Below, piece by piece: positions 853 through 2,434 of a stretch of DNA of 2,486 nucleotides. A program made the translations under genes and the position numbers. The stretch is from NCBI GenBank assembly GCA_000004695.1, contig CH709176.1, forward strand, positions 1 through 2,486, written 5' to 3'. Position 1 is the first letter of the stretch; each line of letters opens with the position of its first letter. The stretch comes from Dictyostelium discoideum. Lineage: Eukaryota. Below the pieces are notes generated by a model. The model saw only the letters and a list, made by a program, of their open reading frames with translations. It did not search any database and had not been told where the DNA came from.

Positions 853-991
853 GTGCATTTTTCTTTGCTGTGTAATTTTTATTTAGTATATTGTTGATTA
901 ATTTCTCTGCCACTTGGTTGGAACGAAAAATTCGAAATGGATTGGATTGGAACAAATTGAAACAAATTGAAACAAGTTTAATTTAATGTTT

Positions 992-1053
992 AAAAAAAAA
1001 AAAAAAAAAAAATTTTTTTTTTTTCTTTTTTTCTTTTTTTTTTTTTTTTTTTT
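992..1053. repeat. Homopolymer junction: A21 (992-1012) abutting a ~41-nt T tract (1013-1053, C at 1025 and 1033)
   Basis: Seen directly. A(n)T(n) is self-complementary. Read on the minus strand, the T tract is an oligo(A) run of ~41 nt with two G interruptions, so this is two poly(A)-like tracts tail to tail. Confidence 0.9.
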
Positions 1054-1110
1054 CCATTGGGACCTATCATTGGATAATTAAATTAAATATAATTAAATCA
1101 GCAAATTTTA

Positions 1111-1128
1111 AAAAAGATCGAGTTATCC
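1111..1128 (+). repeat. Left arm of an 18-bp perfect inverted repeat (AAAAAGATCGAGTTATCC)
   Basis: Exact reverse complement of 1531-1548 (GGATAACTCGATCTTTTT). The arms are about 400 bp apart. Confidence 0.85.
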
Positions 1129-1530
1129 GGAATAAATTCAGTTTTTTCCAAAAAAGTTTTTTTTTGAAAAATTTTTCACTTTTCATATGTTTTTTTTTTT
1201 TTTTAATAAAACACATTATTTAAAACAAAAATTTTAAATAATATTAAACAATATTTGTTAACAACTATCGTAGAATTAAATTTGGTTGTATTTATTGAGA
1301 AATAAAGAAAAATATAAAAAAAATGAACTTCGAAAAAAAAGGGACTTCAAAAAAAAAAAACTACATATGAATAATCAATCCTTTATTTGAGCCCCGGTAT
1401 TTTTGATTTTTTGTCAATCATACTATTTATTTTATTATTTATTTTAATTGTGAATAAATAAAAAAATTAAAAAAAAAAAAAAATAATATGGCCAATAAGA
1501 ATTTTTTCGCGAAAAGATTGATCTTTTCTG

Positions 1531-1548
1531 GGATAACTCGATCTTTTT
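1531..1548 (-). repeat. Right arm of the 18-bp perfect inverted repeat
   Basis: See the left arm. The internal segment 1129-1530 contains the GC cluster GAGCCCCGGTA (~1390-1400), duplicated ACTTCGAAAAAAAA / ACTTCAAAAAAAAAAAA (1328-1360) and an A15 run (~1470-1485). Confidence 0.85.
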
Positions 1549-1689
1549 CAAAATAACTTTTTTTTGTTCAGAATTCAATTATTCACAGAAAGGTCCATTG
1601 TTGTTATATAGGATTATTTCAATAACAAATAAATTAATTGTAAATAAAAATAATTATTTGAACAAAAATCCAATGAAATTTCAGAATTT

Positions 1690-1713
1690 AAAAAAAAAAA
1701 AAAAAAAAAAAAA
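1690..1713 (+). repeat. A24 homopolymer
   Basis: Seen directly; followed by GTGTATATATATTTAA. Confidence 0.95.
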
Positions 1714-1793
1714 GTGTATATATATTTAATTTGTTTTTTATTTAAATAATTTAATAGTAAAAAATGATAAAATCAAATTTTATTATTAATATT

Positions 1794-1817
1794 TTATTAT
1801 TATTATTATTATTATTA
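1794..1817 (+). repeat. (TTA)8 microsatellite
   Basis: Seen directly: ttattattattattattattatta. Confidence 0.95.
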
Positions 1818-1835
1818 TAATCGGATTTTTTGACA

Positions 1836-1860
1836 GTGGGAGAGTTTGGGACACTGGGGA
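1836..1860 (+). other. G-run island (GTGGGAGAGTTTGGGACACTGGGGA) immediately after the microsatellite
   Basis: Three GGG(G) runs within 25 nt in an otherwise G-poor window; internally repetitive (TGGGAGA / TGGGACA / TGGGGA). Confidence 0.6.
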
Positions 1861-2039
1861 AATCAAAAAAAATTATTCAGCCAGTAATGGAATTCTGTAC
1901 AATTATTTGCCTTATTGTATTATTCACCCTACTTTTTTAAGCCTATAAAAATAAAAAAATTAAACCAAAATACATAATTATTAGAAAATTACCTGCCAAT
2001 TCAGAGTAAATATTTACGGTCTAGTGTAATGAATAATGA

Positions 2040-2290
2040 TTAAAAAAGAGATAAATTAAAGCAAATACAAACACGAATAAATTAAAAAAAAAATAAAAAA
2101 AAAAATAAATTCTTAGGTTTAAAAAAAAAAAAACTAAATTTGGTTTAAATTAATAAGATTTATTTATTTATTTTTTAAAAAAAAAAACAATTTTTAGGTG
2201 TACCAAGATTTATTTTTAAAAAAAAAAATAAAAAAAAATTAAATTCCAAAAAAAAAAAAAAGGAAAAAAATAAAAAAATAAAAAAAAATA
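2040..2290 (+). repeat. Strand-asymmetric A-rich low-complexity block with oligo(A) runs of 10-14 and degenerate ~50-90-bp direct repeats (TTAGGTTTAAA... / TTTTAGGTGTACCAAGATTTATTT... / TTTTAGGGACCTG...)
   Basis: The + strand is overwhelmingly A here, whereas 1-120 is T on the + strand. AAGATTTATTT recurs at ~2155 and ~2205, and TTAGG(T/G) recurs at 2113, 2195 and 2296. Confidence 0.7.
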
Positions 2291-2339
2291 AAATTTTAGG
2301 GACCTGATAAAATTTTATCTTTTACAAATATTTTAATCA

Positions 2340-2434
2340 CGATAATAACATTAGACTTTTAAAAGGATAAATACGTACGGATGCCCGAACGAACGTCAAT
2401 AGTTAACAGGTGGTACAATGGCCAAAGGATCAAC
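2340..2434. other. Most complex, GC-richer (~40-45%) segment of the window, immediately 5' of R copy 2; function unknown
   Basis: Contains CGTACG, GAACGAACG, GTTAAC, GGTGGTACAATGGCCAAAGG. A 33-codon ATG ORF (2381-2482, + strand) runs through it into the repeat but is too short and basic to call. Confidence 0.4.

Follow-up and report, generated by a model that had tools for sequence, protein, structure and literature searches.

Several described systems resemble the locus reported here, among them MITEs (as defined in PMC10741241). MITEs, for example the Stowaway and Tourist types, are A+T-rich elements shorter than ~500-600 bp that code for nothing, end in inverted repeats and fold back stably; the locus shares each of these properties and, in a further likeness to MITEs, lies in a repeat-rich, gene-free stretch. 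Foldback (FB-type) elements have long imperfect inverted arms around a unique centre, and those arms are built of short tandem sub-repeats. Bacterial invertons carry a short perfect inverted repeat around a few hundred base pairs. Inverted-repeat DNA elements are also known in Dictyostelium, where they include the Tdd, DDT and thug families (PMC5633606).

The window (the whole stretch of DNA that was analysed, 2486 bp with 20.2% G+C) holds a palindrome that differs from MITEs in several respects: it has no clear target-site duplication, one known copy in the window and no known autonomous partner with matching ends, and its best-conserved inverted stretch is maybe ~50 nt inside, away from the tips. 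It cannot be filed as a MITE. With FB-type elements it shares imperfect arms of ~100-150 nt around a unique centre, but its arms lack tandem sub-repeats (the arrays within 1054-1602 are confined to a T-run, the centre and an A-rich stretch), and it is not an FB-type element by definition; the FB-type architecture, with arms of tandem units, is shown instead by a neighbouring element at 124-877. The likeness to Tdd, DDT and thug is one of candidate host type (extreme A+T, long homopolymer runs) and of composition only, and the palindrome is set beside these families by description rather than by sequence similarity. The features of the palindrome and its surroundings, with the strand where one applies, are:

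124-877, separate foldback-type element with clear inverted termini, unrelated to the palindrome
1013-1054, terminal T-run (tandem-repeat analysis)
1056-1059, candidate flanking repeat ATTG, left, just outside GGACCT; weak
1060-1104, plus strand, possible outer left arm, beginning GGACCT; suggestive only
1105-1110, plus strand, left outward extension, pairing with 1549-1554; paired in folds
1111-1128, plus strand, left core arm AAAAAGATCGAGTTATCC, a perfect 18-mer
1129-1207, plus strand, degraded inner left arm with T6CCA6, palindrome GAAAAATTTTTC, CATATG and T17
1208-1465, non-palindromic centre of 258 bp, with a tandem unit and a G+C cluster
1316-1357, 17-bp tandem unit, ~2.5 copies
1389-1399, G+C cluster GAGCCCCGGTA (from the sequence)
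1424-1446, central tandem unit (tandem-repeat analysis)
1455-1486, A-rich low-complexity periods, overlapping the A15 run
1466-1530, minus strand, degraded inner right arm with A15, ATATGGCC, palindrome TTTTCGCGAAAA and local hairpin GAAAAGATtgATCTTTTC
1531-1548, minus strand, right core arm, the left core in exact reverse complement
1549-1554, minus strand, right outward extension, partner of 1105-1110; paired in folds
1555-1596, minus strand, possible outer right arm, terminating AGGTCC; suggestive only
1597-1600, candidate flanking repeat ATTG, right, just outside AGGTCC; weak

The first-pass annotation described an 18-bp perfect inverted pair (1111-1128/1531-1548) around 402 bp, and this pair is indeed present and exceeds the level found in shuffled sequence. 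The two 18-mer arms enclose 402 nt (1129-1530) and, with up to three mismatches allowed, are the only copies of the 18-mer in the window. To judge the pair against its background, we scored it by information content. Each arm amounts to 35.5 bits given the window composition, against a mean of 23.5±2.3 bits for the best non-overlapping perfect inverted pair in 200 dinucleotide-preserving shuffles. More than 1000 low-complexity inverted pairs occur in the window, and a chance match within low-complexity A+T-rich DNA might thus be suspected. However, the 18-mer has 7 G/C in a 20%-GC window, 35.5 bits were attained in only 1/200 shuffles of the whole window and in 0/200 shuffles of the sub-window 881-2430, and collinear similarity of the flanks adds to the core pair. 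Because of the shuffle test, the chance reading is effectively refuted; the inverted repeat is real and non-random.

Pairing continues outward from the core to give a 24-nt inverted repeat (1105-1128/1531-1554) with a single mismatch (1110/1549) and five more pairs beyond it, and weaker similarity runs on outward from there. Inward, 1129-1207 and the reverse complement of 1466-1530 are identical at 46/59 positions (~68% in a MAFFT alignment of the inner arms), the partners being T6CCA6 with T6CGCGA4, GAAAAATTTTTC...CATATG with GAAAAAATTC...CCATAT, and T17 with A15. This similarity was significant only in the inverted orientation (p=0.001, as against 0.5 for the direct control). The direct similarity that had been noted just inside the arms therefore stands as a likeness but not as a separate direct repeat: T6CCA6 and T6CGCGA4 are alike in both orientations because they are near-palindromes.

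Further out, a local alignment of GGACCTATCATTGGATAATTAAATT (1060-1084) with GGACCTTTCTGTGAATAATTGAATT (the reverse complement of 1572-1596) matched at 19/25 positions, collinear with the core and at a distance from it of 51 nt on the left and 48 nt on the right. Its p value was <0.001 relative to shuffles and 0.011 under an empirical null, and the outer stretch is paired in the DNA fold. However, in a global outer alignment the direct-orientation control scored equally high, and for this reason the outer arms are suggestive only. The arms are thus ~100 nt, possibly 150 nt, and the foldback is larger than first described. They fade without sharp ends; the 18-mer is the best-preserved piece of a longer, old, imperfect palindrome and there is no sharply bounded module. 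Elsewhere in the 2486-bp window the arms recur neither whole nor in part. A U2-snRNA-like reading of the left arm was also considered and dropped, as a targeted cmscan gave no U2 match at E≤10.

With the core excluded, arm identity is 63% (MAFFT), at which the chance of an 18-nt perfect run is 0.011. Either the core is kept better than the remaining arms, or only a short repeat is genuine and the similarity around it is weak. A recognition sequence would be expected to leave just such a better-kept core. The main competing account holds that ~100-150 bp were copied in reverse to a site ~260-400 bp distant, through a process such as template switching or fold-back priming in replication or repair, and then drifted, never having been mobile and having no function; the 18-mer would be a conversion patch or the longest run that is still identical. 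Whilst the fading of the arms suits such a local duplication, the perfect run within 63%-identical arms is hard to reconcile with uniform decay.

The internal features that had been listed for the segment are all there: GAGCCCCGGTA at 1389-1399, ACTTC at 1327 and 1344, CATATG at 1184 and 1364, and A15 at 1469-1483. Inverted symmetry does not extend significantly through the centre at 1208-1465 (p=0.16), which contains no ORF.

The same annotation had proposed looking for a target-site duplication just outside 1111 and 1548. None abuts the 18-mer or the 24-mer, where the boundary shows a trivial AA or an overlapping AAT only, in A+T-rich sequence that makes this a low-power test. Its description of a foldback or MITE-like layout accordingly stands for the foldback, whilst for the MITE part there is neither a duplication at the 18-mer or 24-mer nor a further copy in the window. 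The candidate element ends may be ATTTTAAAAAAGATCGAGTTATCC or GGACCT. The latter occurs four times against 0.09 expected, in alternating orientations (307-312 minus, 1060-1065 plus, 1591-1596 minus and 2300-2305 plus), and GGGACCT occurs twice in the window. The palindrome is bounded by two of the four; around the other two, at 307 and 2300, the sequence bears no relation to the arms, and a search there for extra arm copies found nothing alike past the hexamer (p ~0.34-0.8). The ATTG just outside the bounding copies is 4 bp only and emerged from a scan of many candidate boundaries in A+T-rich sequence; otherwise, boundary pairs with matching inverted tips were A-run artefacts or trivial 3-bp matches.

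An exact 24-nt direct repeat, TTTA21 (989-1012 and 1687-1710), brackets the entire palindrome region. Its left copy adjoins a T41 tract (992-1053 region), giving a perfect A12T12 palindrome; the repeat and the tract alike are of low complexity and may mean nothing. Reading T41 as the minus-strand poly(A) tail of a retroposon and TTTA21 as its long target duplication was uninformative, homopolymers occurring about every 200 bp.

Under code 11 no ORF in the window exceeds 49 aa, codes 1 and 4 give stop-free stretches of 78 aa at most, and all of these frames are low-complexity K/F/N strings. When alternative genetic codes were tried, 1 and 4 gave nothing and code 6 meaningless low-complexity frames only. 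Exact look-ups of ten window ORFs in a protein collection returned no match, and two protein-space searches found no homologue for the stop-free stretches that span the right arm and the core of the 124-877 element. The palindrome itself, 450-540 bp and A+T-rich, has no ORF under codes 1, 4 or 11. Homopolymer runs (A21, A24, T20, T17 and A15), (ATT)n and short tandem units recur through the window. By its composition the window is unlike prokaryotic or viral coding DNA and looks like intergenic or repeat DNA from a dictyostelid-like eukaryote of very high A+T content.

This gene-free context bears on two functional readings. The first-pass annotation had offered a hairpin-bounded regulatory module as an alternative; the window offers no gene that it could regulate and no RNA family matches, and this alternative is unsupported. 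Judged from the sequence, the 18-mers might also be paired, inverted protein-binding sites, either for a recombinase inverting the 402 bp or as a transcription factor module. The preferential preservation of the core speaks for such sites, as does a TTATC/GATAA core inside the 18-mer, given that TTATCC/GGATAA was observed six times against ~1.3 expected. However, the window has no recombinase or other gene, the segment has no definable promoter-like payload, and inverton architecture is bacterial whilst this DNA is not bacterial-like, and we consider paired sites very improbable. The likeness to bacterial invertons is geometric only: there are no flanking genes here and the DNA is not prokaryote-like. 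Because the window holds no recombinase or other gene (there is no credible ORF in 2486 bp), the palindrome does not fit the definition of an inverton.

We also examined the folding of the region. Predicted single-strand RNA folds pair the arms on either strand with energies far below those of shuffles (z=-7.4 for the plus strand and z=-7.3 for the minus strand), the DNA fold of 1050-1605 likewise pairs them (z=-4.1), and arm pairing is seen in both the MFE and the centroid folds. Such low fold energy is an automatic outcome for any inverted repeat. In DNA, extrusion of a cruciform would not be expected for an 18-24-bp stem around a loop of at least 400 nt. In RNA, a transcript of 1100-1560 would be predicted to pair its arms, from which RNase III/Dicer could yield small RNAs. 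The modelled arms would form a near-perfect duplex of ~27 bp, lengthened by pairing of A/U runs, as the closing stem of both strand folds, and a precedent exists in Dictyostelium, where a miRNA derived from the DNA transposon thug-S has been reported (PMC4894637). The comparison extends to microRNA precursors derived from MITEs, such as mir-548 from Made1, which likewise come from an inverted-repeat element whose transcript would make a long duplex. They differ from the present case in that the loop here is ~400 nt, which is unlike known miRNA precursors, in that there is no family match, and in that the duplex here is a prediction. No Rfam family reached its gathering score (the best, mir-M7, scored 20.9 bits against 91). 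Between the two arms we found no conserved RNA structure (-2.85 kcal/mol, with zero compensatory pairs). Together with the automatic nature of the fold energy, these points make a hairpin RNA improbable.

The palindrome has a conspicuous neighbour. The element at 124-877 has the termini ACACAGC(G/A)AAGAAAAA..CACCTTTAAA, inverted and with T|A ahead of each, perhaps as a TA target duplication. The arms of this element (120-304 / 654-877) consist of 11- and 12-bp tandem units containing TTTAAA, and a third copy of its terminus begins at 2435 (2435-2486), with a 24-nt exact match. In that copy, 2457-2486 is the exact reverse complement of 154-183 (30 nt, CGCTTTAAATTAAATTTAAATTTGCTTTAA). The CGCTTTAAATTAAATTTAAATTTGCTTTAA 30-mer succeeds the shared 24-mer terminus in opposite orientations in the two copies, which points to a small inversion between copies of the element.

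The loop of the 124-877 element contains a tRNA-like relic on the minus strand (c379-449). It scores 14.8 bits for Rfam tRNA against a gathering score of 29, over the full length, and ARAGORN detects it in -mt or relaxed mode only. Its ATGGTGTAATGGTT and CTTTGA are reminiscent of tRNA-Gln(UUG). When GGACCT was considered as a tRNA-Gln acceptor end and the palindrome arms as tRNA relics, c379-449 was the only tRNA-like sequence to score. The 12-bp arrays at 192-279 form an almost loop-free hairpin of ~47 bp (195-241 / 242-288, 87% complementary). Its Rfam matches are below threshold (mir-3938 with 42 bits against 94, mir-548 with 37 against 90) and are structural mimicry, not membership.

Smaller repeats are scattered through the window. 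Short perfect or near-perfect palindromes include CCGTTAATTAACGG (324-337), GAAAAATTTTTC (1167-1178), TTTTCGCGAAAA (1504-1515) and GAAAAGATtgATCTTTTC (1512-1529), the last of which adjoins the right arm and repeats the 18-mer start, AAAAGATC. AAAGATC occurs four times in the window against 0.5 expected. The G+C-rich 8-mer ATGGCCAA is present at 1488-1495 and 2418-2425, and the 8-mer CGGATAAC is common to the core of the 124-877 element (335-342) and the left arm (1122-1129, minus strand). The shared G+C-rich 8-mers suggest a patchwork of very old duplications.

To look for relatives, we scanned metagenome, prokaryotic-genome and viral collections for the exact 18-mer; the window itself was absent from the matches. 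Single copies turned up in 28 stretches of metagenome DNA, 8 of prokaryotic genomes and 4 of viral DNA, mostly in coding DNA of 30-60% GC. On a uniform expectation ~17 matches are due in 596 Gb on both strands, and 8 were seen; the match counts are at or below chance. Nor did the flanks of the matched loci identify relatives, since those on AT-rich contigs (L014, L015 and L017, p ~0.03-0.6) resemble the window arms no better than do unrelated bacterial or viral loci (L002 and L034, p<0.005). Three further loci (L005, L010 and L027) with AAATTAAATATAATTA upstream of the 18-mer were attributed to chance, a paralogous repeat on the same contig being without the 18-mer. A blastn search with the whole window against plasmids and phages gave one low-complexity A-run match only, and a full-text literature search for 13-18-mers gave no match. 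Across the metagenome, prokaryotic-genome, viral, plasmid and phage collections and protein space, there was thus no demonstrable relative.

A separate observation concerns two ORF-free metagenome loci of 27% GC, on contigs including Ga0307513_10022901 and Ga0307510_10072308, in which a dispersed repeat of ~140 nt begins at the identical 18-mer (L014 1594-1734, with L017 being the same locus, and L015 120-264). The two repeats are 67% identical (blastn E=1e-13), with similarity in the downstream flank (p<0.0005) but not upstream (p=0.12), and L014 has a second, 16-nt copy of the motif, AAAGATCTAATTATCC, 35 nt downstream. Since possession of the exact 18-mer was what selected these loci, the repeat counts as a hint and a weak lead only; it is not evidence of kinship with the window, and kinship is not demonstrable. 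It is on this hint from an unrelated organism that a further reading leans, in which AT-rich eukaryotes would share an undescribed DNA-transposon or recombinase system with the 18-mer as its conserved recognition sequence, kept perfectly in both arms here whilst the arms around it decayed. We give that little credence, and equally little to its corollary, taken jointly with it, that the 402-bp segment may be a present or past mobilisable or invertible cassette.

From the inverted repeat, its degraded extension, the absence of coding capacity and the potential to fold back, all observed directly, we infer that the most likely origin of the palindrome, at a probability of roughly 0.4, is as the relic of a small non-autonomous foldback/MITE-like DNA element that was once mobile. 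The stretch 1105-1554 (possibly 1060-1596) is one old imperfect palindrome, with arms of ~100-150 nt around a unique centre of 258 bp. On the relic reading, a transposase recognising its inverted ends would have mobilised this small non-coding element in trans, and decay in place would have followed. The 18-mer (or the 24-mer with its one mismatch) may be the terminal inverted repeat that the element began with, or a site that the transposase once bound; alternatively, its identity may have been kept by conversion between the arms.

In favour of the transposon relic we count the non-chance repeat, the degraded extension of the arms (inner p=0.001, outer local p<0.001), their pairing, the size, the lack of an ORF, the better-kept core, the 4-bp ATTG at the outer boundary and, as a weak lead, the metagenome repeat of ~140 nt. 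The 124-877 element, whose terminal inverted repeats are clear and which has T|A flanks and a third terminus, also counts, since non-coding inverted-repeat elements nearby raise the prior for such a relic. Against it stand the lack of an abutting target-site duplication, of a second copy in the window and of relatives in the collections searched, and the outer alignment that scores in the direct-orientation control too. Moreover, a genuine outer similarity would put the 18-mer ~50 nt in from the tip of the element.

Several of these observations suit a non-mobile local inverted duplication, which would be expected to be single copy, as the palindrome is as far as visible in the window and the collections searched, and to have no convincing target-site duplication. 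Other palindromes and inversions abound, including CCGTTAATTAACGG, A12T12, TTTTCGCGAAAA, GAAAAATTTTTC, GAAAAGATtgATCTTTTC and the 30-mer pair 2457-2486/154-183. Such abundance indicates a mutational regime that generates inverted repeats, and thereby raises the prior for local duplication. The size, layout and repeat-rich surroundings suit the transposon relic equally, and we regard local inverted duplication as nearly as likely as the relic. There is no sign of present activity or function for 1105-1554.

The finding is an ordinary one, of little significance by itself. Its practical lesson is that the conspicuous perfect 18-mer is the core that survives from a palindrome once larger and better preserved. 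If the palindrome arose by local inverted duplication, it would illustrate the palindrome-forming mutational regime that is visible across the window. If instead it is a transposon relic, the repeat catalogue of an AT-rich, protist-like genome would gain one decayed inverted-repeat element of the non-autonomous kind, and this stretch would be marked as a transposon graveyard.
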